Virus record (IMG/VR): IMGVR_UViG_2585427748_000003
Reading direction: 5' to 3' (one strand)
DNA length: 13,854 nt
Origin: a virus
Lineage: Duplodnaviria; Heunggongvirae; Uroviricota; Caudoviricetes
The notes below the pieces were generated by a model. It was not told the origin of the DNA, did not search any database, and was given only the letters and a program-made list of their open reading frames with translations. The stretch's first letter is position 1. Every line of letters begins with the position of its first letter. Shown in pieces: positions 1-13,735 of this stretch. The translations under genes and the position numbers were made by a program.

Positions 1-747
1 GACTGGCTGAAGAAAGAGATACAGCGCGTATACGATGAAAATCACAAGGTATACGGTGTGCGTAAAGTCTGGCGTCAGTTGTTACGGGAAGGTATCAGAG
101 TGGCCAGATGCACTGTGGCACGTCTCATGGCGGTTATGGGACTTGCCGGTGTTCTCCGGGGTAAAAAGGTCCGTACGACCATCAGCCGGAAAGCCGTTGC
201 CGCAGGCGACCGCGTAAACCGTCAGTTCGTGGCAGAACGACCTGACCAGCTGTGGGTGGCTGATTTTACTTACGTCAGCACATGGCAGGGCTTCGTCTAT
301 GTGGCGTTCATCATTGATGTGTTTGCCGGATACATTGTGGGGTGGCGGGTCTCATCGTCCATGGAGACGACATTCGTGCTGGATGCACTGGAGCAGGCGT
401 TATGGGCCCGTCGACCGTCCGGCACGGTCCATCACAGTGATAAAGGTTCTCAGTATGTATCGCTGGCCTACACACAGCGGCTTAAGGAAGCCGGATTACT
501 GGCATCAACAGGAAGTACAGGCGACTCGTATGACAACGCGATGGCGGAGAGCATCAATGGTCTTTACAAAGCGGAGGTAATACACCGTAAGAGCTGGAAA
601 AACCGTGCAGAAGTGGAACTGGCCACACTCACGTGGGTGGACTGGTATAACAATCGACGATTGCTGGAAAGGCTGGGCCATACTCCTCCGGCAGAAGCAG
701 AAAAAGCTTATTATGCTTCCATCGGAAACGATGATCTGGCAGCCTGA
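1..747 (+). CDS. IS3-family transposase OrfB (DDE integrase core), 5'-partial at window edge
   Basis: Frame 1 translates from base 1 as DWLKKEIQRVYDENHKVYGVRKVWRQLLREG... (the track's ORF 58-747 is the same frame from an internal GTG). DDE-type signatures are present: WVADFTYV, HHSDKGSQY, ESINGLYKAE. Confidence 0.85.
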   Translation, partial: DWLKKEIQRVYDENHKVYGVRKVWRQLLREGIRVARCTVARLMAVMGLAGVLRGKKVRTTISRKAVAAGDRVNRQFVAERPDQLWVADFTYVSTWQGFVYVAFIIDVFAGYIVGWRVSSSMETTFVLDALEQALWARRPSGTVHHSDKGSQYVSLAYTQRLKEAGLLASTGSTGDSYDNAMAESINGLYKAEVIHRKSWKNRAEVELATLTWVDWYNNRRLLERLGHTPPAEAEKAYYASIGNDDLAA

Positions 748-789
748 GTTCACAGATAAAACACTCTCCAGGAAACCCGGGGCGGTTCA
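1..789 (+). mobile_element. 3' portion of an IS3-family insertion sequence (IS629-like), including the right terminal inverted repeat; continues left of the window
   Basis: Transposase OrfB frame is open from base 1 to TGA at 745-747 and is followed by about 42 bp ending ...CCAGGAAACCCGGGGCGGTTCA at 789. The reverse complement TGAACCGCCCCGGG... matches the terminal repeat I remember for IS629/IS3-group elements. IS629 assignment is from memory; the end position is +/- a few bp. Confidence 0.7.
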
Positions 790-1333
790 CTTCCGGTAGC
801 GCGTCCGCCACCTGATTGCGGACCGCCCACCAGGATAATTCAGCCAGCGATAATTCCCGTTCCTGCGAGCCATTCATTGCATGGCGTATGACGTCAATCA
901 TCCATGCAGACAGGTTTTGGTGAGCAAGTTGCCCGAGTGATTCGGAGGTCTGGTCGCGCAGCTGGTTGTCGCAGTGCCAGCACAACACCATTGCGCCGGT
1001 ACCATAACGGTGAATGACGGTTTCACTGTGGTGATAATCGCCGTGTGGCCACTGGCAGGATTTAACATGGCGCAGTAACCAGTCAGACAATGCGCCAGCG
1101 CCACCAGCAGCACGAATCACTCGTTCGTCGCTGAAAAATGGCAGTAATGATTTATCCTCCGCCAGCGGCTGGCGAACGGCAGGAACGACCCCGGACGACA
1201 GATTACGCATGCTTTTCGGTTCCGGCTCCACCAGTACCCGGGTATTGTGGAATACCGGCATGGATTCACGGCCCGGCTTAACGATCACCAGCCCGAGTTC
1301 CGGTACCAGAACAGGTCGAAGTAATACCCGCAC
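790..1333 (-). pseudogene. Hypothetical phage protein, 3' end interrupted by the IS insertion (native coding part only)
   Basis: Minus-strand ORF from GTG at 1333 with GGAGG just upstream; protein-like composition (..CQWPHGDYHHSETVIHRYG..LCWHCD..). The frame runs uninterrupted across the predicted IS end at 789 into IS sequence, so the native C-terminus is missing. Family not recognised. Confidence 0.45.
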
Positions 1334-1334
1334 G

Positions 1335-1613
1335 TTACCTCCAGATGCGTTGCTGGAATGTGCGGGACGGACGCGGTGGGCGTTCAGAGTAAGGAAGCCT
1401 GACGGAGATTATCCAGTGACGATAATCGAGGCTGAGGGCTTTCTTAATCTCGTATCCGTGTCTGCGGTAGCACTGAATTAGCCATTCAGCTTGTTCTTCA
1501 GTACATGGGGGATGCTGGTACCAATCAGATTTGAATGTGCGGGAACGCCGCCCGTGCCTGCTGGCAAAGACAGCTGAATTATCAGAATTGTGTGATTTGG
1601 TATTGTGCGCCAT
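1335..1613 (-). CDS. Hypothetical protein (possibly the frameshifted 5' part of the downstream disrupted gene)
   Basis: Minus-strand ORF; the longest version (start 1694) would begin inside the terminator hairpin, so the internal ATG at 1613 is preferred. Weak SD; arginine/proline-rich C-terminal tail looks like out-of-frame translation. Confidence 0.3.
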   Translation of the reverse strand: MAHNTKSHNSDNSAVFASRHGRRSRTFKSDWYQHPPCTEEQAEWLIQCYRRHGYEIKKALSLDYRHWIISVRLPYSERPPRPSRTFQQRIWR

Positions 1614-1692
1614 CGTCTTTCTCTGCTGGCGCAGCAGGTGCCAGTTGTTCAGGCTGACGTGCGAATTGTAAACCTGAATGCCAAGAAAAAAC

Positions 1693-1714
1693 AAAACCCG
1701 CCGAAGCGGGTTTT
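1693..1714. terminator. Intrinsic terminator hairpin (CCCGC-CGAA-GCGGG) with T-runs on both strands; bidirectional
   Basis: AAAACCCGCCGAAGCGGGTTTTGTC on plus; minus strand reads hairpin + TTTTGTTTTTTCTTGG. Copy 1 of a 23-bp exact repeat (1690-1712). Confidence 0.6.
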
Positions 1715-2021: not shown

Positions 2022-2047
2022 AAAAGCCCTGTTAGCGCAGGGCTTTT
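2022..2047 (-). terminator. Hairpin overlapping the stop codon of the ImmA-like gene (AAAAGCCCTG-ttagcg-CAGGGCTTTT); putative terminator
   Basis: 10-bp stem including A/T pairs, 6-nt loop, short T-run on both strands. Confidence 0.45.
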
Positions 2048-2522
2048 ACATATAAAAATCGAACGACATCTGTTGTGTTCTCACGCCAATTGTTTCCAGT
2101 ACGATATCCGCAAATGTATCTGCCTGCCATTCTGCATCCTCAATACGAGTAGGTTCTTTAACTGAAAAGTGTAAAACTGCTTTGTGTCCAAGAAGCAAAT
2201 GACCTAGCTCGTGGAAGATAACAGCAAGTGCATGCTCTTCCCCAAGGCAAGCATTCACATATATTTTATTGGGAACCGTAATTGTTAGAGAAGCGGGGTC
2301 ACAATGTCCGATAGTTAGATCATACGTCAGAGCCTCCCACTCTTTGTCGGTCCTGACGTCAAGAGTAACCCCATAAATTGACAGGCTTTCAAAGAACATA
2401 TCATAACGCTTTCTTTTGCGCTTTGAGGCTGTAAGACCAATAGCATTACAGAAGTTTATAGCTCTGTAGGCTATTTCTTCTTCTTGCATCGGTGACACCC
2501 TGTTACCTCTCATTTGATACAT
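2046..2522 (-). CDS. ImmA/IrrE-family (COG2856-like) zinc metallopeptidase
   Basis: 158-aa ORF with HEXXH motif (HELGHLLLGH); start ATG lies 2 nt after the stop of the upstream XRE gene, with GAGGGG SD inside that gene's 3' end (translational coupling). Confidence 0.8.
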   Translation of the reverse strand: MYQMRGNRVSPMQEEEIAYRAINFCNAIGLTASKRKRKRYDMFFESLSIYGVTLDVRTDKEWEALTYDLTIGHCDPASLTITVPNKIYVNACLGEEHALAVIFHELGHLLLGHKAVLHFSVKEPTRIEDAEWQADTFADIVLETIGVRTQQMSFDFYM

Positions 2523-2524
2523 AA

Positions 2525-2884
2525 TTACCCCTCATTGTTATTAATCTTTTGCAATAAATCTGCAAAACTCTTTAGCTGTTCCGGCGTAAACTGCGACTTA
2601 GCGAATCCCGCTACAAGCATTTTCTGTTGCTGAGACAAACCGTTTACTGGAACTGAGTCATTCGCAACTGCCGCTAGCTCCTGTAACCCTTCAATTTCTA
2701 CACCTTTGGCCTTGAAGTAAGAATCAATCTTCTTAACCCACTTCAGAGGTATTTTTTTGCTACCAGTTTCTAAACCGCTAAGAAACGCTGGCGTAGTGCC
2801 CAGTTCTTGAGACATAGTCAGAAGAGTACTGTCAGTATCGATCCTCGCTTTTCTAACGGCCTTACCGAATTCAGTGAGTGCCAT
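2525..2884 (-). CDS. XRE-family helix-turn-helix transcriptional regulator (ImmR-like partner)
   Basis: 119-aa ORF; N-terminal region fits the Cro/C1-type HTH pattern (..STLLTMSQELGTTPAFLSGLETG..). GAGGA SD 8 nt upstream of the ATG at 2884. Confidence 0.8.
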   Translation of the reverse strand: MALTEFGKAVRKARIDTDSTLLTMSQELGTTPAFLSGLETGSKKIPLKWVKKIDSYFKAKGVEIEGLQELAAVANDSVPVNGLSQQQKMLVAGFAKSQFTPEQLKSFADLLQKINNNEG

Positions 2885-3029
2885 GATTTTATCCTCAATT
2901 TGTTGATTTAGCAGACTTGCCTAACGCAAGCCTGATGGGCGCTTAAATTCTAATTCCTAAAATTTACCATATACGAAAGCAAAGTAAACCTTTTTAGTTA
3001 AAAAAATCTCCTTTAAGGGAATTTTTTTC

Positions 3030-3060
3030 ACAAAAAGAACAAAACCCGCCGAAGCGGGTT
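3030..3060 (-). terminator. Intrinsic terminator for leftward (minus-strand) transcription from the small-gene/hok operon
   Basis: Minus strand reads AACCCGC-TTCG-GCGGGTT followed by TTTTGTTCTTTTTGTG. Copy 2 of the 23-bp exact repeat (3038-3060). Confidence 0.6.
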
Positions 3061-3128
3061 AAGTGCGGGTGCGTTGAGGATGCCTGACACATCAGAGGTG
3101 GCGAGGGATTTCTCCCCCGCCAGGTCTC

Positions 3129-3284
3129 TTACTCCTCAGGTTCGTAAGCTGTGAAGACAGCGACCTCCGTCTGGCCGGTTCGGATTCGTACCTCGCAGAG
3201 GTCTTTCCTCGTTACCAGTGCCGTCACAATGACGGTTAAACAGATGACGATCAGGGCGATTAGCATCGCCTTTTGCTGCTTCAT
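3129..3284 (-). CDS. hok: Hok/Gef-family type I toxin (small membrane peptide, 51 aa)
   Basis: Translation MKQQKAMLIALIVICLTVIVTALVTRKDLCEVRIRTGQTEVAVFTAYEPEE has the Hok/Gef hallmark (hydrophobic helix followed by conserved ..RKxLCEVxIRxGxxEVAxFxAYE..). AAGGAG SD 9 nt upstream. An in-frame upstream ATG at 3341 gives the track's 70-aa frame; whether that is a mok-like reading frame I cannot tell. Confidence 0.8.
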   Translation of the reverse strand: MKQQKAMLIALIVICLTVIVTALVTRKDLCEVRIRTGQTEVAVFTAYEPEE

Positions 3285-3329
3285 AGCCTGCTTCTCCTTG
3301 CCTTTCGGCACGTAAGAGGCTAACCTACG

Positions 3330-3400
3330 TGTGTAGAGCATAGATATGGCCTCAGATTAATGTTAAGCGTCTTGCCGGACGCGTAATGTTAACTGGGGCT
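3330..3400 (+). ncRNA. sok: Predicted Sok-like antisense RNA opposite the hok leader/upstream start region (approximate)
   Basis: By analogy with hok/sok loci only. Candidate plus-strand promoter TTGCCT (3298-3303), 17-bp spacer, TAACCT (3321-3326). No clear terminator found; boundaries are guesses. Confidence 0.2.
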
Positions 3401-3575
3401 TTTCTCTATCTGCCTTTTGGTGTTCATGCCTGAGACAGATAGCCTCAAGCACCCGCTGCAATTCTACTTAACTCTCCTTTTCCCGCAAACCGTTTTTATC
3501 CCCAGCGGCAAATCGAATACACCACCAGCGCCACCGCCATCGCAATTCCTACCGTTGTTAATGCTTCAGGCCAGG

Positions 3576-3920
3576 TCATCGTAAAATATCCTCCACGCTT
3601 ATCAGTCCGTTCCGCTCCAGATAACTCATCGCCTTATCCGGTAATTTGCAGTCTGGCTTCGCTTTCCTCAGTTGCCAGGTTAACTGCTTTACCAGCATGG
3701 TTAACTCATCGACCAGACGCTGATATCCCACTGGTTTGTATTCATGCAATTTACCGGCTGGCTCTGCTGCCAGCGATACCAGTGCGATTTCCAGAACAGC
3801 AATATCCATCTTATATGTGCGGATGATGTCATGGTCGATTGTGCCCGGTATGCACAGTCTCTGTGCTTCAATAGTCTCCTCTGCGTGAGCTATTAACTGC
3901 TCTCTGGTAAAAGTCGTCAT
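3576..3920 (-). CDS. Hypothetical small phage protein (114 aa)
   Basis: ORF with AAGGGG SD; its ATG overlaps the stop of the upstream 55-aa ORF (ATGA). N-terminus [15 protein letters not shown].. resembles that of the 55-aa ORF. Confidence 0.6.
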
Positions 3921-4084
3921 GCCGTAGCCCCTTCTTGATATTTTTCAAACCAGAACACAACCGGCTCTGCTTCCAGCGATGCCAGCGCAATCCGTGCCAG
4001 TTCCATTTGTTCACCACGGGTAAGCCCGTTTTCAAGCGGGTTTTTAATGAACAATTCAATACGTTCTTTGGTAATAGTGGTCAT
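3917..4084 (-). CDS. Hypothetical small protein (55 aa), below the ORF-track length cutoff; short paralog of the N-terminal part of the 114-aa protein
   Basis: Hand translation [55 protein letters not shown]; strong AAGGAG SD 7 nt upstream of the ATG at 4084; stop overlaps the next start (ATGA). Confidence 0.6.
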
Positions 4085-4094
4085 GTGTTACTCC

Positions 4095-4358
4095 TTAACC
4101 CGCAGTGCTTTCAACTGATGAGGGGAACAAAATCTTTTCATCAAACCCTGCATTCATATCATGAACAGCAACACACCAATCCATCGACGAACGATTATCA
4201 AGAGCCTCCATGATTTCATCCATGCGGCGTAGGTCATACAGGTAAATGCTTTTATCGCCAATGGTGTAAAAGCCAATTTTTTTCGGTGATGGACAGCGAT
4301 CAAGAACTTCCTGTAATTCGTTCAACCATGCCCGTTCTTTTTTTGTCAAAGTTGCCAT
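4095..4358 (-). CDS. Hypothetical small protein (87 aa)
   Basis: Internal ATG at 4358 (MATLTKKERAWLNELQ..) preferred over the track's longer frame because an AAGGA SD sits 9 nt upstream and it abuts the stop of the upstream gene. Confidence 0.55.
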   Translation of the reverse strand: MATLTKKERAWLNELQEVLDRCPSPKKIGFYTIGDKSIYLYDLRRMDEIMEALDNRSSMDWCVAVHDMNAGFDEKILFPSSVESTAG

Positions 4359-4359
4359 A

Positions 4360-4578
4360 TCAGTTTTCCTTATACGGATTAATTTTATTGTGCAGTGTGT
4401 TGAACGACGCCCATACAACGTCGGTATACAATTCAGTAACTGGCTCAATTATTTTCCCGATTGCCCAGACAAAAATTAGAGGGGATATCGGTATCATCAA
4501 TACGATAAACAGAATGAGAAACAAAAATTCTGTCGCTCTACTTTTTTGCGGATATTCTTTTCTGAATAATGTAGTCAT
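4360..4578 (-). CDS. Small membrane protein (72 aa, one predicted transmembrane helix)
   Basis: Hydrophobic stretch FLFLILFIVLMIPISPLIFVWAIG; preceded by a GGGAGG - hairpin - AUG arrangement. Confidence 0.55.
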   Translation of the reverse strand: MTTLFRKEYPQKSRATEFLFLILFIVLMIPISPLIFVWAIGKIIEPVTELYTDVVWASFNTLHNKINPYKEN

Positions 4579-4610
4579 TTCTTACCGCCCTTTCGGGCGG
4601 CCTCCCGACA

Positions 4611-4823
4611 TTAATCGTTGTGGTAACTCATGGCTTCATTTGCAGCATCAACCGGATCAACTTCCCACCAGCAATAATTTGGTGCGTTTCCTTCAGGTGT
4701 CCACGGTTCTAATTCATTTTTTGCCACATTCTCGTCGCCAGTAATTTTAAAAATCTGTTCAGAGAATTTTTTCACCCACTCGTTATATTTTTCAGTGTTA
4801 ATAATTTTCTGTGTATTTGACAT
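4611..4823 (-). CDS. Hypothetical small protein (70 aa)
   Basis: Strong GGAGGT SD 7 nt upstream of the ATG at 4823; protein-like composition. Confidence 0.65.
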   Translation of the reverse strand: MSNTQKIINTEKYNEWVKKFSEQIFKITGDENVAKNELEPWTPEGNAPNYCWWEVDPVDAANEAMSYHND

Positions 4824-4928
4824 AGATATACCTCCAGTTAAGGATTAAATTTTATTTACAGTGCTGAACTTAATTATTCAGATTTGGATTATGCTTTCTC
4901 TTCACGAAGTTCCGATTGTTAATTTGGC

Positions 4929-5351
4929 TCACAACAGCACCTTCTGAAAATTACCCTGATAAAACGACAATATGCGCTGCATAACTTCGCTCTTCCGGCA
5001 CTCGCGACAGATTATGTTCTGACGCCTGTCGTAGCGACGTATTTCTCCGTCAGGTAATGACCAGATAAGGTCCGGATCAACCGCAGATGGTTTCTTCAGC
5101 TTTGCCCTTGAGAGCTTTTTACGGGCATTTTGCCAGTCCTTACGCGCCTGTTCAGACGGGAATAACCCGTAACCAGAGTTGTATACATCGCCACTGGCAA
5201 CCAGCTCTCTGGCCAGAACGCTCATCAGATATCTTGTTGCCCCAGTTTTAGTTTCCAGTTGTCGTAACGTCTCGCGCCCACTCTGGCGTACGAGTTCAAC
5301 AACCTGCCCTTTAATTTTTTCCCGCTCTTCTTGTGTAAAAACTTTTGCCAC
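4929..5351 (-). CDS. Hypothetical protein (140 aa), possibly DNA-binding
   Basis: GTG start with AGGAGGG SD 4 nt upstream; basic protein with a helix-turn-helix-like stretch. Family not recognised. Confidence 0.55.
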   Translation of the reverse strand: MAKVFTQEEREKIKGQVVELVRQSGRETLRQLETKTGATRYLMSVLARELVASGDVYNSGYGLFPSEQARKDWQNARKKLSRAKLKKPSAVDPDLIWSLPDGEIRRYDRRQNIICRECRKSEVMQRILSFYQGNFQKVLL

Positions 5352-5391
5352 AAGCCCTCCTGAAAATTACCTCATGACCAGAAATTAACAC

Positions 5392-6354
5392 TTACCCCCT
5401 GAAGCCCGGCGGAATTTCAGTGTCCGGTTCAGAAATGTGATTCACGCAACGCTGCGCAGGCGAACGCCCCAGGCGGATAACCAGTTCATCCCATTTTTCC
5501 CGGAGTTTTGCCGGACTCATGATGTTTTTTACCCAGAACGAATCCCGCTGGAGACGCCCAAACATTTCACAAATTTGTCTGTGAGTTCTGCCATCCAGCA
5601 TCCGCATTGTGCGAACGTCATTGGCCCATGCTGTCCAGTTGGGTTCTTTCGGTCTAGTGATCTCGCCATCATCGCTGGCCGCCTGCTCGTAAAGACTCAC
5701 GATTCGTCCCCAGATCCACTGTGCGCACACCAAATCTTCCTGACTTCCCCACTGGCGTTTTTTCGCACTGAACACAACCGCGTCAGGGTGTCGGGTTAAA
5801 AAATCCTGTTCAGCCGTCTGCGGGTCCGGTTGCGAAGCGTCCGGACAAGAAGATCTTTTATCTGACGGATCAGGTTTTAATACTGACGGATCGGGGTTAA
5901 TCATCGCCCCCCTAATCGGCAGTTTTTTATCAACAGTTGATCCATCAAAATTTGACGGGTCAACCGTTGAGGGGTCAATATTTGACGGGTCAACTGTTAA
6001 CGGGTCATTTTTTGCCGGGCTAATTTTTCTTTTCGGTTTATATGACTCACGCGCCGCCGCCGCAGCTGCTTCGAGTTTTTCCACATTAAGCCGATAGATA
6101 TTGCTTACATTACGCCCACCGACCTTACGCTCTTCCTTCGTCAGCCAGCCCTCTTTCGCCAGTTCTGCAATAGCCGATTTCACTGTGGATTCACTTCTTG
6201 CACCGATCTGACGCCGGATAGTTTCAATGGCAGGCCATGACACGCCCTCGTCATTGCTGTAGTCTGCAAGACGGGCCATAACCGCCACCCTGGATAAGAT
6301 CATGCCGGTGAAGGCGCACCCTTCCCAGACAAGACCATGAAGCTTGCTGCTCAT
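5392..6354 (-). CDS. Putative replication initiation / replisome-organiser protein (N-terminal HTH domain, repeat linker, C-terminal domain)
   Basis: Position directly after the ydaS/ydaT-like genes in the rightward-equivalent operon; N-terminus resembles initiator-type HTH domains; linker made of pentapeptide repeats (TVDPS/NIDPS) encoded by iteron-like DNA repeats. Start placed at ATG 6354 (GGGGG SD) rather than the track's GTG at 6369. Function inferred from architecture and synteny. Confidence 0.55.
   Translation of the reverse strand: MSSKLHGLVWEGCAFTGMILSRVAVMARLADYSNDEGVSWPAIETIRRQIGARSESTVKSAIAELAKEGWLTKEERKVGGRNVSNIYRLNVEKLEAAAAAARESYKPKRKISPAKNDPLTVDPSNIDPSTVDPSNFDGSTVDKKLPIRGAMINPDPSVLKPDPSDKRSSCPDASQPDPQTAEQDFLTRHPDAVVFSAKKRQWGSQEDLVCAQWIWGRIVSLYEQAASDDGEITRPKEPNWTAWANDVRTMRMLDGRTHRQICEMFGRLQRDSFWVKNIMSPAKLREKWDELVIRLGRSPAQRCVNHISEPDTEIPPGFRG
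5953..6012. repeat. Four tandem 15-bp iteron-like repeats (TGACGGGTCAA-type, each an imperfect palindrome) inside the replication gene; two related copies at 5863-5872 and 5884-5893
   Basis: Units begin at 5953, 5968, 5983 and 5998 with exact 15-bp periodicity; an AT-rich stretch (about 5921-5952) lies immediately downstream in the gene's transcription direction. Confidence 0.55.
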
Positions 6355-6376
6355 AAAACCCCCGAACACCGTGCTT

Positions 6377-6802
6377 TTAGTGCATCACCACAGCATTCCC
6401 TGCCGGGCCGCCGCGATTCATCTGGTCATACAAAACAACCGCTGACGCAACAAAATCATCGACATCCTTCCCCAGCCGATCCCTCCGTTCGACGATCTCA
6501 CGGTAATATTCAGAACTGTGGCTGCGCATACGGGCCACCAGCAAAGGCGGCATCGCCTTTTCGATCGCCGGTAACAGAGCCTGCATTTTTTCAACAGCAT
6601 CAGGGGTGTCTTTATCCAGCCAACGGAAAATTTTCTGGGTATTACGGGCCAGGGCTTCCGGATGGCTGTCGTCGTACAGTTCAGGGAACGTCATCCCCAG
6701 TTCGAAATAAGTCCGGGCTATTTCAGCTGCAGGAACTTTCTCACCATCAGGGTATGCCCAGGCATTCATCGCCATGCGGATGTGCTCATGTTTGATTTTC
6801 AT
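6377..6802 (-). CDS. ydaT: YdaT-like protein (Rac-type prophage, toxic partner of YdaS under RacR control)
   Basis: 141-aa ORF starting MKIKHEHI..; start overlaps the 3' end of the ydaS-like gene by 17 nt; synteny with racR/ydaS. Assignment from remembered similarity to K-12 Rac, not a search. Confidence 0.65.
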   Translation of the reverse strand: MKIKHEHIRMAMNAWAYPDGEKVPAAEIARTYFELGMTFPELYDDSHPEALARNTQKIFRWLDKDTPDAVEKMQALLPAIEKAMPPLLVARMRSHSSEYYREIVERRDRLGKDVDDFVASAVVLYDQMNRGGPAGNAVVMH

Positions 6803-7109
6803 GAATCATTTGCCTCTTGATGCTTCGGGTATGATCGTTTTCGTCATTTGGTTGCTTCATCGACATATTCTGCGAATAACATGACGAGCGTCGTAAGTAT
6901 GTCCAATCAACATCAGGACGAAGTTCTTCACACAGGACACCACCTTTTGTTGCTCGTTCAATCGCAGGACATCTCTCAGCAGGTAACTGACGTACACCTT
7001 TGATCCATTGATTTACGCTTGGAGGAGATACACCTAAAAGCCTAGCCATTGCTGATTGCCCACCGACAACAGCACAAGCTCGTTTGAATGAATAGTTATC
7101 TTTTTTCAT
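6786..7109 (-). CDS. ydaS: YdaS-like Cro-type HTH protein (first gene of the pR-like operon)
   Basis: Preferred start ATG at 7109 (MKKDNYSFKRACAVVGGQSAMARLLGVSPPSVNQWIKG..) with GGAG SD; the track's longer frame begins at a GTG at 7130. Divergent from the racR-like gene. Confidence 0.7.
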   Translation of the reverse strand: MKKDNYSFKRACAVVGGQSAMARLLGVSPPSVNQWIKGVRQLPAERCPAIERATKGGVLCEELRPDVDWTYLRRSSCYSQNMSMKQPNDENDHTRSIKRQMIHENQT

Positions 7110-7136
7110 CGAATGAACTCCAAAAAACACGCAACA

Positions 7137-7166
7137 ATATTAGGCTTAGCCTAATGAAATTGTCAA
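7137..7166 (-). promoter_or_regulatory. pR-like sigma-70 promoter for the ydaS/ydaT/replication operon
   Basis: Minus strand: -35 TTGACA (plus 7161-7166), 18-bp spacer, -10 TAATAT (plus 7137-7142). Operator A overlaps the spacer/-10 and operator B abuts the -35. Confidence 0.6.
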
Positions 7167-7204
7167 TAGGCTATGCCTAATACATCGAGAGTAGGGATTG
7201 CCTA
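7141..7204. promoter_or_regulatory. OR-like operator cluster: three 13-bp palindromes TAGGC-N3-GCCTA
   Basis: Sites at 7141-7153 (TAGGCttaGCCTA), 7167-7179 (TAGGCtatGCCTA) and 7192-7204 (TAGGGattGCCTA), spaced 25-26 bp centre to centre, in the racR/ydaS divergent intergenic region. Confidence 0.65.
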
Positions 7205-7233
7205 ACGCGATGCGCATAGGAGACTATTAAGCA

Positions 7234-7710
7234 ATGCTTAGTGGTAAAGACTTAGGCCGAGCGATAGAGCAGGCCATTAACAAAAAAATTGCATCAGGAG
7301 CCGTCAAATCAAAGGCGGAAATCGCACGTCATTTCAAAGTCCAACCACCATCAATCCATGACTGGATTAAGAAAGGTTCGATAAGTAAAGACAAACTTCC
7401 AGAACTATGGCGTTTCTTTTCTGATGTGGTTGGTCCAGAGCATTGGGGGCTTAACGAATACCCCATACCAACCCCATCCACTTCAGATACAAAAAGTGAA
7501 CTTTTAGACATAAACAGCCTTTATCAAGCCGCCTCTGATGAAAAAAGAGCAATTGTGGCTTTCATCTTATCTGGAAATGCTACGGAGCCTAGTTGGGTTG
7601 ATCATGACGTTCGCGCCTACATTGCCGCAATGGAAATGAAGGTAGCTAACTATCTGAAAAATCAAGAATCAAAACGGAAAAGCCAGAACATCACCAAGAC
7701 AGGAACTTAA
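7234..7710 (+). CDS. racR: RacR-like prophage repressor (158 aa)
   Basis: ORF MLSGKDLGRAIEQAINKKIASGAVKSKAEIARHFKVQPPSIHDWIKKG.. with AGGAG SD 11 nt upstream; flanked on both sides by the same palindromic operator family; divergent from the ydaS-like gene. Assignment from remembered similarity to K-12 RacR. Confidence 0.8.
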   Translation: MLSGKDLGRAIEQAINKKIASGAVKSKAEIARHFKVQPPSIHDWIKKGSISKDKLPELWRFFSDVVGPEHWGLNEYPIPTPSTSDTKSELLDINSLYQAASDEKRAIVAFILSGNATEPSWVDHDVRAYIAAMEMKVANYLKNQESKRKSQNITKTGT

Positions 7711-7725
7711 ACTTATATGGTCCGA

Positions 7726-7745
7726 CGGGAAATTCCTAGTTCCCG
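7726..7745 (+). terminator. Weak hairpin downstream of the racR-like gene (CGGGAA-N8-TTCCCG); possible terminator
   Basis: 6-bp stem, 8-nt loop, followed by TTAGTTAACT; U-tract is poor. Confidence 0.25.
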
Positions 7746-7786
7746 TTAGTTAACTCCTACTACCTCTCCCACAAACCATCACCTAT

Positions 7787-7843
7787 TAGGTTGCGCCCAA
7801 ATTATTAGGCATAGCCTATTGACAAGTAATTAGGCATTTCCTA
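7787..7843. promoter_or_regulatory. OL-like operator cluster: three further TAGGC-N3-GCCTA-type sites
   Basis: Sites at 7806-7818 (TAGGCataGCCTA), 7831-7843 (TAGGCattTCCTA) and a degenerate one at 7787-7799 (TAGGTtgcGCCCA); they overlap the pL-like promoter. Confidence 0.6.
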
Positions 7844-7847
7844 TAGT
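7819..7847 (+). promoter_or_regulatory. pL-like sigma-70 promoter driving the operon that ends in xis-int
   Basis: -35 TTGACA (7819-7824), 17-bp spacer, -10 TATAGT (7842-7847). The 12-mer GCCTATTGACAA is shared with the pR-like promoter on the other strand. Confidence 0.7.
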
Positions 7848-8028
7848 TTTCCCATACCAACCCATCCCGTCCCACACAATACAGGGCAATACCTCGAGTT
7901 ACCAGGCAGTGGTCAGGGGTTAAGTAGCCAGCCCGAGGCGTAAGAACATGACGGCAGGGTTCAACTTTAATAACTATGCAGCAGGTTTTTGTTCCGCTAC
8001 CCCGGCGTTAAGGGGAAATGAGGTCAGC

Positions 8029-8181
8029 ATGGATACTATCGAGCTTGGCAACAACGAATCTCTGGTATGCGGCGTGTTTCCCAACCAGGACGGCACGTTT
8101 ACCGCGATGACATATACCAGAAGCAAAACGTTTAAAACTGAAGCTGGCGCACGTCGCTGGTTAACCAGAAACACTGACTGA
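8029..8181 (+). CDS. ydaF: YdaF-like small protein (50 aa)
   Basis: MDTIELGNNESLVCGVFPNQDGTFTAMTYTRSKTFKTEAGARRWLTRNTD with GAGG SD 5 nt upstream; first gene after pL. A longer in-frame start at 7948 is possible. Name from remembered similarity to K-12 Rac ydaF. Confidence 0.5.
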   Translation: MDTIELGNNESLVCGVFPNQDGTFTAMTYTRSKTFKTEAGARRWLTRNTD

Positions 8182-8513
8182 TGAGGTTGACGATGGAATT
8201 TAAAGATTTACCAGTCCCATTCCAGGAAATGGCATCGAATGTGGTTCGCTCTCAACTGGCGACTCTTGACCTGAGTACCGTAGAAAAAGAAACCATCGAC
8301 AATATATCCGGTAACGTACGCCGAGCCTTTATCGGGCTGTACGAAGAGAAGCAGCTCTCTGATAACCAGGATTTACATGAAAAATACTTCCTGGATCTAA
8401 TGGACATCATTGATAAGGGGTTTGGCTTGTTAATGAAAAAGAAAGGGATTCGAATAGAACCCCTTGAAAATTACTTTGCAACAAAAAGCATTAATTCTTT
8501 TGATTCAAAATAA
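8181..8513 (+). CDS. Hypothetical acidic protein (110 aa; 106 aa if started at ATG 8193)
   Basis: Start overlaps the ydaF-like stop (TGATG); GAGG SD before the second ATG; AT-rich codon usage unlike the flanking genes. Confidence 0.5.
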   Translation: MRLTMEFKDLPVPFQEMASNVVRSQLATLDLSTVEKETIDNISGNVRRAFIGLYEEKQLSDNQDLHEKYFLDLMDIIDKGFGLLMKKKGIRIEPLENYFATKSINSFDSK

Positions 8514-8766
8514 GAGAATTAATTACAGACTTAACATGCTCTTTCTCATGATTGAAGCTCTCATGATTGAAAGTGCCGGGTTGAAGCGAGTCGATATAAT
8601 CAACAAGACTCTGTCGTACGACTTCATTTTTATCCATAACAGATGCAAGAAATGAAATTGCTAAAAGAGTTATATCACTACGCGCCGCAGCATGTTGCAA
8701 TGCTTTATCAAAATTATTAATCTGGCGTATCAGGGAGTTAATGATTTCATCATTTTCAGTCGACAT
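8491..8766 (-). CDS. Hypothetical protein (91 aa), convergent with and overlapping the 110-aa gene by 23 bp
   Basis: ATG at 8766 (MSTENDEIINSLIRQ..) with strong AGGAGG SD 6 nt upstream. The track's 162-aa version starts at a TTG and has an arginine-rich N-terminus that looks non-coding. Confidence 0.5.
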   Translation of the reverse strand: MSTENDEIINSLIRQINNFDKALQHAAARSDITLLAISFLASVMDKNEVVRQSLVDYIDSLQPGTFNHESFNHEKEHVKSVINSLILNQKN

Positions 8767-9039
8767 TTCACCCTCCTGAGGGTTGGTGATTAAGGAGTTC
8801 TCCACGGGTGAGGTGGAGTGCGTGCGCCGGACACGGGTGAGCATCCGGCACTGACAGTTTACTGAAAGGATATTTCCCTGAAAAGTCAGACCATAACGCG
8901 AAAGCGCACGGCGAGGTAGCTGGTTCATAGATAGCCTGTCGTTAAATTTTCGTCGACCGTGCGCTTCCGGTTGTGGCAATCCGCGAAATGGCGCGGCGGT
9001 AAGTATGGCGGGGTTATTCCTTCCCCCGTTGAGGACACC

Positions 9040-9076
9040 GGGTTGTCAGGTTGACCATACGCTTAAGTGACAACCC
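9040..9076. repeat. Inverted repeat GGGTTGTCA - 19 nt - TGACAACCC in the non-coding stretch of the pL operon
   Basis: 9-bp perfect arms at 9040-9048 and 9068-9076; no adjacent T-run on either strand, so not a canonical terminator. Confidence 0.4.
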
Positions 9077-9328
9077 CGCTGCAACGCCCTCTGTTATCAA
9101 TTTTCTGGTGACGTTTGGCGGTATCAGTTTTACTCCGTGACTGCTCTGCCGCCCTTTTTAAAGTGAATTTTGTGATGTGGTGAATGCGGCTGAGCGCACG
9201 CGGAACAGTTAAAACCAAAAACAGTGTTATGGGTGGATTCTCTGTATCCGGCGTTAATTGTTAACTGGTTAACGTCACCTGGAGGCACCAGGCACCGCAT
9301 CACAAAATTCATTGTTGAGGACGCGATA

Positions 9329-9517
9329 ATGGAAACGTTATTACCAAACGTTAATACGTCTGAAGGTTGTTTTGAAATTGGTGTCAATATCAGTAACCCT
9401 GTATTTACTGAAGATGCCATTAACAAGAGAAAACACGAACGGGAGCTATTAAATAAAATATGCATTCTTTCAATGCTGGCCCGTTTACGTCCGATACAAA
9501 AAGGATGCTGGCAATGA
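9329..9517 (+). CDS. Hypothetical small protein (62 aa)
   Basis: METLLPNVNTSEGCFEIGVNISNPVF..; GAGGA SD 8 nt upstream; its stop overlaps the next start (ATGA). Confidence 0.5.
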   Translation: METLLPNVNTSEGCFEIGVNISNPVFTEDAINKRKHERELLNKICILSMLARLRPIQKGCWQ

Positions 9518-9705
9518 ATACAGCATTTGCACTTGTTCTGACAGTTTTTCTTGTTTCCGGAGAGCCAGTTGATATTGCAGTCAGTGTTCACAGGACAATG
9601 CAGGAGTGTGTGACTGCAGCAACCGAACAGAAAATTCCCGGTAACTGTTACCCGGTCGATAAAGTTATTCACCAGGATAATAACGAAATCCCGGCAGGTC
9701 TTTAA
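9514..9705 (+). CDS. Small exported or membrane-anchored protein (63 aa)
   Basis: MNTAFALVLTVFLVSGEPVD.. has a signal-peptide-like hydrophobic N-terminus; AAGGA SD 8 nt upstream of ATG 9514. Confidence 0.55.
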   Translation: MNTAFALVLTVFLVSGEPVDIAVSVHRTMQECVTAATEQKIPGNCYPVDKVIHQDNNEIPAGL

Positions 9706-9797
9706 AACAGTTCCGTAATAAATATCCGGTTTCATTCTTATATGCCAGCAATGGCAGGGATTTGTTCACCCTTAAATCTGTAATGAGGTAAAACAAA

Positions 9798-12212
9798 ATG
9801 AGTAAAGTCTTTATTTGCGCCGCCATTCCGGACGAACAGGCAATAAAGGAAGAAGGTGCCGTCGCTGTAGCCACTGCCATTGAAGCCGGTGATGAACGTC
9901 GCGCCCGCGCAAAATTTCACTGGCAATTCCTGGAACATTATCCGGCTGCTCAGGACTGCGCTTATAAATTTCTTGTCTGCGAGGATAAACCCGGTATACC
10001 CCGCCCTGCCCTCGATTCCTGGGATGCTGAATATATGCAGGAAAACCGCTGGGATGAGGAGTCTGCTTCCTTTGTCCCGGTTGAGACTGAATCCGATCCG
10101 ATGAACGTCACTTTTGACAAGCTGGCCCCTGAAGTACAGAACGCTGTCATGGTTAAGTTCGACACATGTGAAAACATCACCGTTGATATGGTTATTAGCG
10201 CACAGGAATTGTTGCAGGAAGACATGGCAACATTCGACGGACATATCGTTGAAGCGTTGATGAAAATGCCAGATGTTAACGCCATGTATCCGGAGCTTAA
10301 GCTGCATGCCATCGGGTGGGTTAAGCATAAATGTAAGCCTGGTGCCAAATGGCCCGAAATTCAGGCAGAGATGCGCATCTGGAAAAAACGTCGCGAAGGT
10401 GAACGCAAGGAAACCGGAAAATACACGTCTGTTGTTGATCTCGCCCGCGCCAGAGTCAATCAACAGCACACTGAAAATTCAACAGGAAAAATCAGCCTGG
10501 TCATTGCTGCCATTCATCGCGAATACAAGCAGACATGGAAAACACTGGATGACGAACTGGCCTACGCTCTCTGGCCTGGTGATGTGGATGCCGGAAACAT
10601 TGACGGCAGCATCCATCGCTGGGCAAAAAATGAAGTTATCGACAACGACCGCGAAGACTGGAAGCGTATCTCGGCATCAATGCGCAAACAGCCTGATGCC
10701 CTTCGCTACGACCGCCAGACTATTTTTGGCCTTGTCCGTGAACGTCCGATCGACATTCACAAAGACCCTGTGGCACTGAACAAATACATTACTGAATACC
10801 TGACTACAAAGGGCGTGTTTGAAGATGAAGGAAGAAATCAGAGCGCAACTGATACTCTCTCGTCGCCAGTACCAGAAACTGATGCAGTGGAAACGGCAAT
10901 TCCGGACAACGAAAAAACCGAATGCAAAGTGGAAGTCGAACCATCTGTAGAGCGTGAGGGGCCGTTCTACTTCCTCTTCACCGACAAGGATGGCGAAAAA
11001 TACGGTCGCGCAAACAAACTTTCTGGTCTGGATAAGGCACTGGCTGCCGGGGCTACTGAAATCACGAAAGAAGAATATTTCGCCCACAAAAACGGTACAT
11101 ACTCAGGTTCACAACAAAATACTGGTGCATCTGACACGACCGCACAACCAGGGCCGGTAAAAGTTACCGCTGACGAAGTAAACAAAATTATGCAGGCAGC
11201 CAATATCAGCCAGCCTGACGCCGATAAGTTGCTTGCTGCCTCTCGCGGAGAATTTGTTGCAGGGATTAGCGACCCGAATGATCCGAAATGGGTTAAGGGG
11301 ATCCAGACCCGCGATTCTGTAAACCAGAACCAGCATGAATCGGAACGGAACTACCAAAAAGCGGAACAAAACAGCCCAAATGCGTTACAAAACGAGCCAG
11401 AAACGAAACAGCCTGAACCAGTGGCGCAACAGGAAGTGGAAAAAGTCTGCACCGCCTGCGGTCAGACCGGCGGCGGCAATTGCCCTGATTGTGGCGCGGT
11501 GATGGGCGACGCAACATACCAGGAAACATTCGATGAAGAGTATCAGGTTGAAGTTCAGGAAGATGATCCGGAGGAAATGGAAGGCGCTGAACATCCACAC
11601 AAGGAGAACACTGGCGGCAATCAGCATCACGATAGCGATAATGAAACTGGCGAGACGGCAAATCACTCAATTAAGGTGAACAGTCATCACGTAATCACAT
11701 CCACCAGCAGGACGTGTGACCATCTAATGATAGACCTTGAAACCATGGGAAAAAATCCTGATGCCCCGATCATCTCAATAGGTGCAATATTTTTCGATCC
11801 GCAAACCGGAGATATGGGACCGGAATTTAGTAAGACTATCGATCTGGAAACTGCTGGCGGAGTCATTGATCGGGACACCATTAAATGGTGGCTTAAGCAA
11901 TCACGCGAAGCGCAATCTGCCATTATGACCGATGAAATCCCGTTAGATGATGCACTGTTACAATTGCGGGAATTTATCGACGAAAACTCCGGTGAATTTT
12001 TTGTTCAGGTCTGGGGAAATGGAGCCAACTTCGACAACACGATTTTGCGCCGTTCATACGAACGGCAGGGGATCCCCTGCCCGTGGCGTTACTACAACGA
12101 TCGCGATGTACGCACAATCGTTGAGCTGGGGAAAGCCATAGACTTCGATGCCAGAACGGCTATTCCATTCGAAGGTGAGCGCCATAATGCACTTGATGAC
12201 GCCCGTTACTAG
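9798..12212 (+). CDS. RecE/exodeoxyribonuclease VIII-like protein with a C-terminal DnaQ-like DEDDh 3'-5' exonuclease domain (about residues 644-804); ends at an in-frame TAG
   Basis: 804-aa ORF, GAGG SD 9 nt upstream, placed immediately upstream of xis-int as recE/exo is in lambdoid prophages. C-terminal motifs LMIDLETMG (Exo I), VWGNGANFDNT (Exo II), HNALDDARY (Exo III); Cys4 zinc-ribbon-like CTACGQTGGGNCPDCG in the linker. The RecE-like assignment of the N-terminal/linker region is from memory. Confidence 0.8.
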   Translation: MSKVFICAAIPDEQAIKEEGAVAVATAIEAGDERRARAKFHWQFLEHYPAAQDCAYKFLVCEDKPGIPRPALDSWDAEYMQENRWDEESASFVPVETESDPMNVTFDKLAPEVQNAVMVKFDTCENITVDMVISAQELLQEDMATFDGHIVEALMKMPDVNAMYPELKLHAIGWVKHKCKPGAKWPEIQAEMRIWKKRREGERKETGKYTSVVDLARARVNQQHTENSTGKISLVIAAIHREYKQTWKTLDDELAYALWPGDVDAGNIDGSIHRWAKNEVIDNDREDWKRISASMRKQPDALRYDRQTIFGLVRERPIDIHKDPVALNKYITEYLTTKGVFEDEGRNQSATDTLSSPVPETDAVETAIPDNEKTECKVEVEPSVEREGPFYFLFTDKDGEKYGRANKLSGLDKALAAGATEITKEEYFAHKNGTYSGSQQNTGASDTTAQPGPVKVTADEVNKIMQAANISQPDADKLLAASRGEFVAGISDPNDPKWVKGIQTRDSVNQNQHESERNYQKAEQNSPNALQNEPETKQPEPVAQQEVEKVCTACGQTGGGNCPDCGAVMGDATYQETFDEEYQVEVQEDDPEEMEGAEHPHKENTGGNQHHDSDNETGETANHSIKVNSHHVITSTSRTCDHLMIDLETMGKNPDAPIISIGAIFFDPQTGDMGPEFSKTIDLETAGGVIDRDTIKWWLKQSREAQSAIMTDEIPLDDALLQLREFIDENSGEFFVQVWGNGANFDNTILRRSYERQGIPCPWRYYNDRDVRTIVELGKAIDFDARTAIPFEGERHNALDDARY

Positions 12213-12333
12213 GCAAAATACGTTTCAGTTATCTGGCAAAAACTGATCCCGAGTCAGGCTGATTTTTAATGTTCAACCCCGGTCGTTGCCCACCAGCTAT
12301 AGTGGCGGCGACCATGATTAGCGAACGACGCCC

Positions 12334-12582
12334 ATGGCAAGACTTATTCTGCTCACTGAGTGGGCAAAAGAGGAATTCAGTGAACCGGTCCCTACTCCGG
12401 GCACGTTAAGTAAATACGCTAAAGCCGGAATGATATTTCCTCTCCCCAAAAAAGTTGGAAGACGCTGGCGAGTGGATCCGCAAGCTCGCTTTGTCGGAAT
12501 GGTAAACAAGCCGGAGGTGATCGCCACAGATCACCCTGCTTTGAAGAGGATACTGGAAGATGGCGCGCCCGCGAAAATATAA
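12334..12582 (+). CDS. xis: Excisionase-like protein (lambdoid prophage Xis family)
   Basis: 82-aa basic protein directly upstream of int, overlapping it by 23 bp, as is usual for xis-int pairs; no convincing SD. Confidence 0.6.
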   Translation: MARLILLTEWAKEEFSEPVPTPGTLSKYAKAGMIFPLPKKVGRRWRVDPQARFVGMVNKPEVIATDHPALKRILEDGAPAKI

Positions 12583-13690
12583 AACCGATGTTCCGGGATT
12601 ATCTCCGTATTTTGACAAAAGAAATAACAAAGTTTACTGGCGTTACAGGCATCCCATAACAGGCAAAAATCACGGTCTCGGCAGTATTGACCAGAAACTG
12701 GCGGAAACCATTGCAGCAGAAGCGAACAGCCGTCTTGCCAGACAACAAATGGAGCAAATGCTCAGTCTGCAGGAGAAAATTATTAATGATACCGGCGGTT
12801 CATCAACCGTTTCCATTTTTCTGAATAATTACAGAAAAATTCAACAGGAAAGATATGAAAACGGAGAAATCAAACTCAACACGCTGAAACAGAAAGCGGC
12901 CCCTCTCAGGGTTTTTGATGAACGTTTTGGCACCAGACCGTTAGATGCCATAACCGTAAAGGATGTGGTATCGGTGCTGGAAGAGTACAAGTCCAGAGGA
13001 CATAACAGAATGGGACAAATTTTCAGGAAGGTACTGATCGATGTTTTCCGGGAGGCTCAGCAAACGGGCGATGCCCCGCCAGGCTTTAATCCTGCAGAAT
13101 CGGCAAAAAAACCACAGGTGCGGATATCAAGACAGCGACTGACTTTTGATGAGTGGACGATGATTTATAACGCAGCGGAAAAGGATGGTTACTTTTTACA
13201 GCGCGGTATGCTGCTGGCACTGATGACAGGCCAGCGCCTTTCAGATATTTGCAAAATGCAATTTTCGGATATCCGGGATGGTTATCTTCATGTCGAACAG
13301 CAAAAAACAGGAACCCGGATTGCCATCCCTCTGGCTCTGCGTTGCGATAAATTAAATCTCACCCTGGATGATGTGGTGTCATCCTGTCGCGATTGCGTTC
13401 TTAGTCCGTGGCTATTGCACCATCATCACGCGAAAGGGACAGCTAAGCGCGGCGGGATGGTTAAGCCAGCAACGTTAACCGTTGCATTTAAAAAAGCGCG
13501 GGATTCTGTGGATTACAACTGGCGTGCTAATGGCACCCCACCCTCTTTCCATGAGCAGAGATCTTTATCAGAGCGATTGTTCAGAGAGCAGGGAATTGAT
13601 ACCCAAATTTTGCTGGGTCATTCGAATCAAAAAATGACCGATATTTACAACGATGCACGCGGCAAGGAGTGGAAAAAACTGGTCATTTGA
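12560..13690 (+). CDS. int: Lambda-family tyrosine integrase
   Basis: 376-aa ORF with lambda Int-like architecture and catalytic-region blocks (..LALMTGQRLSDICKMQFSDIRDGYLHVEQQKTGTRIAIP.., ..PPSFHEQRSLSERLF.., ..LLGHSNQKMTDIYNDARGKEWKKLVI); GAGGA SD. Confidence 0.9.
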   Translation: MARPRKYKTDVPGLSPYFDKRNNKVYWRYRHPITGKNHGLGSIDQKLAETIAAEANSRLARQQMEQMLSLQEKIINDTGGSSTVSIFLNNYRKIQQERYENGEIKLNTLKQKAAPLRVFDERFGTRPLDAITVKDVVSVLEEYKSRGHNRMGQIFRKVLIDVFREAQQTGDAPPGFNPAESAKKPQVRISRQRLTFDEWTMIYNAAEKDGYFLQRGMLLALMTGQRLSDICKMQFSDIRDGYLHVEQQKTGTRIAIPLALRCDKLNLTLDDVVSSCRDCVLSPWLLHHHHAKGTAKRGGMVKPATLTVAFKKARDSVDYNWRANGTPPSFHEQRSLSERLFREQGIDTQILLGHSNQKMTDIYNDARGKEWKKLVI

Positions 13691-13696
13691 TGACCA

Positions 13697-13731
13697 GTTT
13701 TGCAGAGGAGTTTTGCAGAGATTTTGCAGAG
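13697..13731. repeat. Three tandem copies of a 10-bp core TTTTGCAGAG between the int stop and the ompW stop; candidate Int arm-type or accessory binding sites
   Basis: Cores at 13698-13707, 13711-13720 and 13722-13731 (periods 13 and 11 bp). Confidence 0.55.
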
Positions 13732-13735
13732 AAAA

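Follow-up and report, generated by a model that had tools for sequence, protein, structure and literature searches.

The minus strand of IMG/VR virus record IMGVR_UViG_2585427748_000003 (Duplodnaviria; Heunggongvirae; Uroviricota; Caudoviricetes), a stretch of 13,854 nucleotides (nt) that we refer to throughout as the window, encodes a 51-codon toxin gene, hok, and the question that it raises is whether this gene is accompanied by everything that toxin-antitoxin systems of type I would require, or is instead a remnant of one. An earlier note on this DNA, made from its letters, had described a Hok-family toxin with a long leader in positions 3129..3420, lying at the end of a small-gene operon and overlapped by a promoter-like element that could drive a Sok-like antisense RNA. 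We conclude, with near certainty, that what lies here is a hok/mok/sok type I toxin-antitoxin cassette with all of its parts, belonging to the HokD/HokW subtype, and that it forms an autonomous insert within the early-right (nin) region of an Escherichia coli prophage that is lambdoid and Rac-like. The full cassette, at approximately 3038..3489, is larger than the span first noted, which leaves out the first 34 nt of the mRNA (with the element called tac), the hok promoter, and the 3′ untranslated region with its fold-back inhibitory element (fbi) and terminator.

That the 51-residue product (MKQQKAMLIALIVICLTVIVTALVTRKDLCEVRIRTGQTEVAVFTAYEPEE) is a Hok/Gef-type membrane toxin is borne out by several comparisons. 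The Pfam profile HOK_GEF (PF01848) matches over positions 1-42/42 with 82.9 bits (cut-off 22, E 1.2e-23), which is the outcome that the earlier note had required of a Hok family profile search; PHROG 251 (‘MokW-like host killing’) matches with an E value of 2.8e-33; and the peptide is 100% identical to RefSeq HokD, WP_000813254.1. It carries an N-terminal hydrophobic helix, LIALIVICLTVIVTALV, followed by TRKDLCEV, and the core (L/I)(V/T)RK(D/S)LCE is present in all of the 40-odd relatives retrieved. At the level of DNA, positions 2990..3600 recur with 100% identity in several complete chromosomes of E. coli, whose annotation calls the gene ‘type I toxin-antitoxin system toxin HokD’, and HokD has been reported to be toxic on expression (bioRxiv 10.1101/2025.08.07.668861).

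The elements of a dedicated transcription unit can be read around this gene (Table 1). By homology, the mRNA would begin at G3454, giving a leader of 170 nt (to position 3285) in place of the roughly 230 nt first estimated. The Rfam scan for hok/sok families that the earlier note had proposed returned a full-length match to RF01794 (model 1-157/157, 117.1 bits against a gathering cut-off of 59, E 1.2e-26) at 3454..3279 on the minus strand; as this match lies on the hok-sense strand and ends at the hok start codon, the model describes the leader of the hok mRNA with its Sok target, and not the Sok gene itself. Ahead of the predicted start, loci from Escherichia, Kluyvera, Photorhabdus, Pantoea and Citrobacter, in which the upstream DNA is otherwise unalignable, have a TAnnnT hexamer 6-7 nt before the sequence GGG(T/C)GCTTG. 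Downstream of hok lies an intrinsic terminator, as had been claimed, and it is the only one found by a terminator scan of 2850..3700. A generic sigma-70 promoter scan of the same interval gave a single match (3366..3337, minus strand), which falls inside the leader and has no homologue to support it; it was not used.

On the opposite strand, the promoter-like element TTGCCT-17-TAACCT is present as described, although it is not placed inside the 51-codon hok frame: it sits upstream of the hok ATG, in the segment that belongs to mok only, where it overlaps the hok Shine-Dalgarno sequence. From −35 through −10 it is identical to the corresponding region of sokW in phage 933W/Sp5, and it stands where the annotated sokW would need it, such that the suggestion of a Sok-like antisense RNA is well founded, if so far a matter of comparison. 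Work on the hokW-sokW of Sp5 has shown sokW RNA on Northern blots, and a complete loss of antitoxin activity and of protection against HokW when the sokW −10 carries point mutations (PMC8621323). As a bare match to consensus the element is weak (7/12 positions); its TTG in the −35, and A2 and T6 of the −10, are invariant in the 16 aligned loci introduced below, in columns that also carry dcb, mok codons and the hok Shine-Dalgarno sequence. The predicted Sok RNA starts 7 nt past TAACCT, ends in a U-run after a hairpin, and overlaps the start of mok by 9 nt, the same overlap as that of annotated sokC over mokC in K-12. Its predicted fold consists of a single-stranded 5′ tail of 15 nt, a long hairpin and a terminal UUUU (−28.6 kcal/mol, z = −5.4, none of 200 shuffles being as stable). 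The sequence thus holds what would be expected of a convergent cis-antisense Sok, with a promoter of its own, a 5′ tail and a terminator hairpin, lying over the mok start.

The folding of the RNA bears on these pairings. The full-length hok mRNA is predicted to fold with −173.1 kcal/mol (z = −6.9 against shuffles), and in both minimum-energy and centroid folds tac (3454..3443) pairs with fbi (3067..3079) over 12 base pairs (bp), with the mok Shine-Dalgarno sequence paired to ucb. In the first 40 nt of the transcript, tac pairs with its own downstream flank in the minimum-energy fold, the equivalent of a ‘metastable’ hairpin, and in 5′ fragments of 60-110 nt the minimum-energy fold contains the tac-ucb stem. 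For mRNAs truncated at the 3′ end (ends at 3098-3075), the plain minimum-energy fold does not switch, and the ‘open’ form (tac-ucb together with the Shine-Dalgarno sequence paired to dcb) was therefore evaluated under constraints, whereupon it came to lie 2.3-4.6 kcal/mol above the minimum. Three conformations have been described for the hok mRNA of plasmid R1 (PMC9841398); the pairing potential for all three is present here, while thermodynamic prediction alone does not reproduce the switch between them.

Covariation in these helices can be judged from related loci. We retrieved 53 hok loci from species-representative genomes and aligned the 16 with intact leaders, which come from Escherichia, Kluyvera, Pseudocitrobacter, Citrobacter, Pantoea and Photorhabdus, scoring them on the fold of the window. 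Standard pairs are formed in 86.5% of cells, as against 38-46% when the partners are slid, and 30 pairs are changed on both sides, as against 8-17 in the slid controls. The tac-fbi helix pairs in 93.7% of cells, and in 4 of its 12 pairs both partners differ among the loci (in Photorhabdus and Pantoea, for instance, C:G stands in place of U:A). The G+C-rich 3′ stem-loop just upstream of fbi, present in every fold, is kept as a helix with 85.6% paired. By analogy with R1 (PMC9841398), this stem-loop is expected to protect the 3′ end of the processed mRNA. The columns of the alternative pairings between the mok Shine-Dalgarno sequence, ucb and dcb are invariant, and covariation is uninformative there.

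Table 1. Features of the predicted hok/mok/sok cassette; positions are those of the window
Feature	Position	Strand	Details
hok promoter (putative)	3461..3488	-	−35 TTGCGG (3488..3483), 16-nt spacer, −10 TAGAAT (3466..3461), 6 nt to start G3454; read from sequence
hok mRNA, full-length (predicted)	3038..3454	-	~417 nt; 5′ end = position 1 of Rfam RF01794; 3′ end approximate, in T-run after terminator
tac	3443..3454	-	GGGUGCUUGAGG; mRNA 5′ end; pairs with fbi in minimum-energy fold
ucb (anti-Shine-Dalgarno for mok)	3393..3399	-	GCCCCAG; pairs with mok Shine-Dalgarno (3349..3355) in full-length fold, with tac in Rfam consensus structure
mok Shine-Dalgarno	3350..3353	-	GAGG; 8 nt before mok ATG; invariant in 16/16 loci
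mok frame	3129..3341	-	70 codons, ATG 3341, in frame with hok; from open reading frame list
dcb (alternative partner of mok Shine-Dalgarno, open form)	3316..3320	-	GCCUC; Rfam consensus GAGGC:GCCUC; columns invariant
hok Shine-Dalgarno	3294..3298	-	AGGAG; 9 nt before hok ATG; read from sequence; nearly invariant (16 loci)
hok (hokD-type toxin gene)	3129..3284	-	51 codons + stop; ATG 3284, stop 3131..3129
3′ stem-loop, G+C-rich	3099..3122	-	GGCGGGGGAG-AAAU-CUCCCUCGCC region; 10-bp helix in every fold; just upstream of fbi
fbi (fold-back inhibitory element)	3067..3079	-	CCUCAACGCACCC; complementary to tac
Intrinsic terminator of hok mRNA	3036..3060 (stem 3060..3043)	-	AACCCGC-UUCG-GCGGGUU + U-run; terminator scan
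Sok promoter (predicted)	3298..3326	+	−35 TTGCCT (3298..3303), 17-nt spacer, −10 TAACCT (3321..3326)
Sok antisense RNA (predicted)	3333..3403	+	71 nt; coordinates transferred by alignment from annotated sokW misc_RNA, NC_000924

Two features of the Sok segment stand out when related loci are compared. The first is an observation on the hairpin tip (3367..3382 and flanks), where a 16-nt palindrome, GCGTCCGGCAAGACGC, lies between direct TTAACATTA repeats and extends the Sok/target hairpin beyond the Rfam consensus. Loci of the hokD/W type and those of Kluyvera and ‘Enterobacteriaceae G50’ possess the palindrome, with compensatory changes, and it is absent from hokC-type, Photorhabdus, Pantoea and Citrobacter loci, which divides Sok into two structural classes of approximately 71 and 59 nt. 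A recent insertion of the repeat-flanked palindrome had been considered, and this was ruled out by its presence, compensatory changes included, in Kluyvera and other genera. The second concerns the 5′ tail of Sok, which is also the beginning of mok: among nine close hokD/W-type loci, 3333..3348 is the most variable 15-nt stretch of the mRNA, with a mean pairwise difference (pi) of 0.33 against 0.09 overall, and with 11 of its 16 columns varying compared with 78 of 374 elsewhere (Fisher p 8e-5). In the same loci the Sok hairpin and the Shine-Dalgarno sequences of both mok and hok are almost invariant.

The in-frame upstream start giving 70 codons, which the earlier note had picked out, proves to be a homologue of mok: it adds 19 N-terminal residues (MLYTRRLASYVPKGKEKQA) to hok and uses the same stop codon, the layout of annotated mokW/hokW in 933W and of mokC/hokC in K-12. 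The mok ATG is kept in 15 of the 16 aligned loci, and its GAGG Shine-Dalgarno motif is the same as that of mok in plasmid R1 (PMC9841398). Given the frame and stop codon shared in all three systems, and a good, invariant ribosome-binding sequence at the mok start, it could be asked whether the 70-residue Mok is the main toxic protein and the 51-residue Hok a minor product. We find this most improbable. In close relatives a single-base insertion (GGTCAAGG versus GG-CAAGG) puts mok out of frame with the cassette otherwise kept, as in Rac 442/2, where mok and hok have different stops, and in K-12 mokB/hokB; moreover, no part of the locus varies more than the Mok extension. What is conserved would then be the act of translating mok, and not the Mok peptide, and Mok as a functional long toxin was discarded because close relatives do not keep the mok frame in register with that of hok.

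A separate observation concerns the toxin coding sequence, in which the Tyr47 codon (3143..3146, minus strand) reads UAC followed by G, within a UACGAA motif that is invariant in 16/16 aligned hok loci. TadA-type A-to-I editing in a UACG context, recoding Tyr to Cys, has been reported for the hokB, hokC, hokD and hokE mRNAs (bioRxiv 10.1101/2025.08.07.668861); if it occurs here, such editing would give HokD a second periplasmic cysteine.

The closest characterised system is hokW-mokW-sokW of Stx2 phage 933W and Sakai prophage Sp5 (NC_000924), whose DNA is 93.5% identical to that of the cassette across promoter, leader, mok, hok and fbi. Along with the identical Sok promoter region, the two have in common a 70-codon mok in frame with hok, a long Sok hairpin with the 16-nt palindromic tip, and the tail of a small hydrophobic open reading frame (ORF) upstream of the cassette, and in 933W mokW, hokW and, on the opposite strand, a 71-nt sokW (as misc_RNA) are all annotated. 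Differences lie in several positions of the Sok 5′ tail and first mok codons, a few C-terminal residues of the toxin, the 3′ terminator, and the location: in the 933W record hokW follows Ea22-like genes close to the right end, whereas the window copy lies in the nin region, between replication genes and Q. The small hydrophobic ORF just mentioned is an unannotated 27-codon frame in the window (3496..3579, minus strand), whose ATG overlaps the stop of a 114-residue ORF (ATGA) and whose C-terminal half is kept just upstream of hokW in 933W; it has no PHROG match and might encode a small nin-region membrane protein.

Plasmid and chromosomal systems can be compared as well. Plasmid R1 hok/sok (parB), the paradigm, shows the same elements, namely tac/fbi, ucb/dcb, mok with its GAGG Shine-Dalgarno sequence, a 3′ stem-loop, and a convergent Sok with 5′ tail and terminator hairpin (Rfam model, PMC9841398). 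HokW-type toxins are only ~44% identical to R1 Hok (PMC8621323), DNA similarity between plasmid hok loci and the window is limited to the segment comprising mok start, Sok promoter and hok Shine-Dalgarno sequence, the Sok hairpin of the window has the 16-nt extension, and the carrier is a prophage rather than a plasmid. The chromosomal hokC (gef)/mokC/sokC of E. coli encodes a toxin ~82% identical to that of the window, with mok in frame, the 9-nt overlap of Sok and mok, and the same tac sequence; hokC-type loci differ in having no hairpin extension, in a Sok −10 that reads CACTCT, and in occupying a fixed core-genome site near nhaA, with an adjoining IS186 in the K-12 copy.

Comparison with K-12 hokD (relF, in the cryptic prophage Qin) bears on whether the cassette is intact. 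The toxin proteins are identical, the DNA is nearly identical from the hok Shine-Dalgarno sequence (window ~3298) through fbi and terminator, and both copies lie in a lambdoid prophage upstream of rem/ydfU/Q. In K-12, where hokD stands behind relBE, all that precedes the hok Shine-Dalgarno sequence has given way to the end of relE, such that tac, ucb, the mok start, the Sok −10 and the Sok RNA are all gone. The alignment shows directly that K-12 hokD is a truncated copy and that the window holds the intact form, with its full leader and a hokW-type organisation in place of the relBE-hokD arrangement. The same kind of fusion, with a relE end in place of the hok leader, was also seen in Kluyvera sp. 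CHPC 1.2972 and in E. coli ECDA1023, and the arrangement is thus not peculiar to K-12.

Such truncations lend some colour to the idea that the cassette in the window is likewise an inactive relic, with neither killing nor any other role, that hitch-hikes in prophages. One further copy from E. coli (L009) is degenerate at its 5′ end, the two promoters resemble the consensus weakly, and chromosomal hokA, hokB and hokC have been reported to be unable to mediate post-segregational killing, according to work cited in bioRxiv 10.1101/2025.08.07.668861. Against this, all of the elements needed in R1 are present and pair correctly, the helices are kept across genera by compensatory changes, the toxin is identical to a HokD known to be toxic on expression, the Sok promoter region is identical to the functional one of sokW, and the 93.5%-identical hokW-sokW is itself functional (PMC8621323). 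The intact leader, taken as a match to at least 80% of 3285..3460, is also kept by 4214 of 5426 complete genomes of E. coli (~78%), at a median of 2 and up to 8 places per genome. We therefore regard a relic as very unlikely, and take the cassette to be an intact one.

The cassette belongs, as the earlier note had supposed, to a prophage. Strain E7476 has a prophage with 99.6% identity to the window over 11.4 kb (2448..13854), which adjoins ompW and carries genes for integrase, excisionase, exonuclease, dicB, racR, ydaS/ydaT-like products, replication, small nin-type products, hokD and lysis; the element hosting the cassette is thus an E. coli prophage of the lambdoid, Rac-like kind, next to ompW. 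The cassette occurs in 110 phage records, among them Stx phages, Rac-type and ompW-integrating prophages and P1-like phages, and also on some plasmids. A position ahead of rem/ydfU/rusA/Q recurs in Rac 442/2, PPompW and vB_EcoM-606R7.

Within this setting, it might be supposed that hok is no more than the last cistron of the early-right small-gene operon, expressed by read-through in the manner of hokD in the relBE-hokD of K-12. From 7130 down to hok every gene lies on the minus strand, hok being co-directional with the early-right genes; the terminator scan predicted none between the upstream ORFs and the hok start, which makes read-through possible; and hok is co-directional with the gene immediately upstream in 6 of the 7 phage contexts examined. 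Conversely, the distance between the −10 and the conserved 5′ end of the mRNA stays fixed despite unrelated upstream DNA, tac could work as it does in R1 only if placed at, or close to, a free 5′ end, and the same boundaries (from −10 to terminator) are seen across phage backgrounds, the homology with Rac 442/2 beginning at the −10. In addition, hokW mRNA is there before induction and does not rise afterwards (PMC8621323). We think it unlikely, on balance, that hok depends on the operon; read-through may add to transcription from its own promoter and does not replace it. The placement at the end of a small-gene operon thus holds in so far as the cassette follows small genes with no separating terminator, and fails in that it is an autonomous insert with a conserved −10 and a terminator of its own.

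Synthesising these findings, and by homology with R1 hok/sok and hokW-sokW, we propose a model for how this autonomous cassette might work. A weak constitutive promoter would produce a stable mRNA of ~417 nt, which on completion would be inert, with tac paired to the 3′ fbi and the mok ribosome-binding site held by ucb. Slow trimming from the 3′ end would strip away fbi, allowing tac to move to ucb and the mok site to open, and ribosomes engaged on mok would carry translation over to the overlapping hok frame. For as long as the convergent 71-nt Sok, of more rapid turnover, continues to be made, it would pair with the mok start region, such that translation is blocked and the duplex cleaved by RNase III. 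Once Sok synthesis ends, through loss of the prophage, general shut-off of transcription or prophage induction, the stable pool of mRNA would be translated, and the 51-residue Hok would enter the inner membrane and collapse it. The transcripts, the 3′ processing, the coupling of mok to hok, toxicity from this locus and its biological role are all points that we infer by analogy.

The earlier note had proposed post-segregational killing or phage defence as the role; in the one experimental study of a near-identical prophage copy, that of Sp5, a different role emerged. There, HokW was found to be toxic and located in the inner membrane, and to be counteracted by sokW expressed from its own promoter; upon addition of mitomycin C, sokW RNA vanishes and hokW mRNA stays, and HokW-FLAG appears in a RecA-dependent manner ~1 h before endolysin (PMC8621323). 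Deletion of hokW-sokW halves phage release, the locus bringing about earlier lysis and ~2-fold more phage on induction (PMC8621323; Takada et al. 2021). We consider it most likely that the window copy has the same role as its 93.5%-identical counterpart, with retention of the prophage and abortive defence against other phages as possible additional ones. PADLOC contains no model matching Hok, and there is accordingly no support from that database for a label of defence system.

Several observations nevertheless weigh against a complete and active cassette, and we set them out together. Post-segregational killing and defence against other phages are the textbook roles of plasmid hok/sok, to which the reported failure of chromosomal hokA, hokB and hokC in post-segregational killing, noted above, stands opposed. 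The role of hokW may not transfer, as hokW sits elsewhere in its phage genome than does the window copy. The Hok subfamily hidden Markov model NCBIfam NF007279 gives the window Hok 48.5 bits, below its cut-off of 73, and the NCBIfam HokA equivalog 40.2 bits, below its cut-off of 89; NF007279 does not cover the HokD/W branch, and the identical protein is nevertheless named HokD in RefSeq. The ‘sok’ match to RF01794, being on the hok-sense strand, does not by itself prove an antisense gene. Neither the hok nor the Sok promoter was listed by the sigma-70 scan of 2850..3700, both being weak by consensus (for hok, because the −35 matches at only 3 of 6 positions), and it is comparison with homologues, and not the hexamers, that supports the two. 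In the plain minimum-energy fold of the 3′-truncated mRNA, the mok Shine-Dalgarno sequence stays paired. Lastly, both promoters and the transcripts of the window cassette are predicted ones.

The orientation of the cassette and the variability of the Sok tail lead us to two linked, and rather doubtful, speculations. The cassette is co-oriented with an antiterminated early operon, early-right in the window and in a like manner in most of the phage contexts examined, and with no terminator ahead of it, read-through from that operon could occlude the convergent Sok promoter on induction; in 933W, co-orientation would hold after excision, with an early-left transcript crossing attP. The high variability of the Sok 5′ tail and its target could, for its part, reflect diversification that keeps co-resident prophage copies of hok/sok from silencing one another.

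Some neighbouring features of the window deserve to be recorded. Just 3′ of the hok terminator (2046..2884, minus strand) is a gene pair with a 4-nt overlap, encoding a 119-residue helix-turn-helix protein and a 158-residue M78 (ImmA/IrrE-like) metallopeptidase; the pair is supported by Pfam PF06114 (E 2.4e-5), PHROG 87 (‘metallo-protease’) and weak PADLOC matches of the capH/capP-like kind. Strain E7476 has an IS1 at the position of the M78 peptidase, and in phage Tritos an ImmA/IrrE-HTH gene follows hokD, two genes further downstream. Further along, 629..1694 (minus strand) contains a 234-residue ORF that matches PHROG 96 (‘HNH endonuclease’), has ~85% DNA identity to the ydfU region of K-12 Qin, and is preceded by a 119-residue ORF (PHROG 1212); a rem/ydfU/rusA/Q neighbourhood of this kind is usual downstream of hok. 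The plus strand carries, at 9103..9154, DicF small RNA in its full length (Rfam RF00039, 76.7 bits against 48), with dicB annotated downstream of it in the matching prophage.

The hok/sok family has been studied since the 1980s, and the system described here is already known, in a very common form; the annotation of mokW, hokW and sokW in 933W, and the experimental work in prophage Sp5, already cover this cassette. Its practical value is one of annotation. RefSeq marks only the 51-residue hokD at this locus, leaving mok, Sok and the mRNA elements unmarked, and the strand of the Rfam ‘sok’ match is potentially misleading, since automated annotation from RF01794 would get both the strand and the extent of ‘sok’ wrong. 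Two points are mildly new, namely the variable Sok 5′ tail with its target, and the shared orientation of the cassette and antiterminated early transcription, a possible explanation for Sok being lost on induction; occlusion of the Sok promoter, if true, would explain the RecA-dependent loss of sokW and would time the production of Hok to lytic growth. Finally, the window documents the intact form of a locus whose truncated remnant is the much-cited hokD/relF of K-12.

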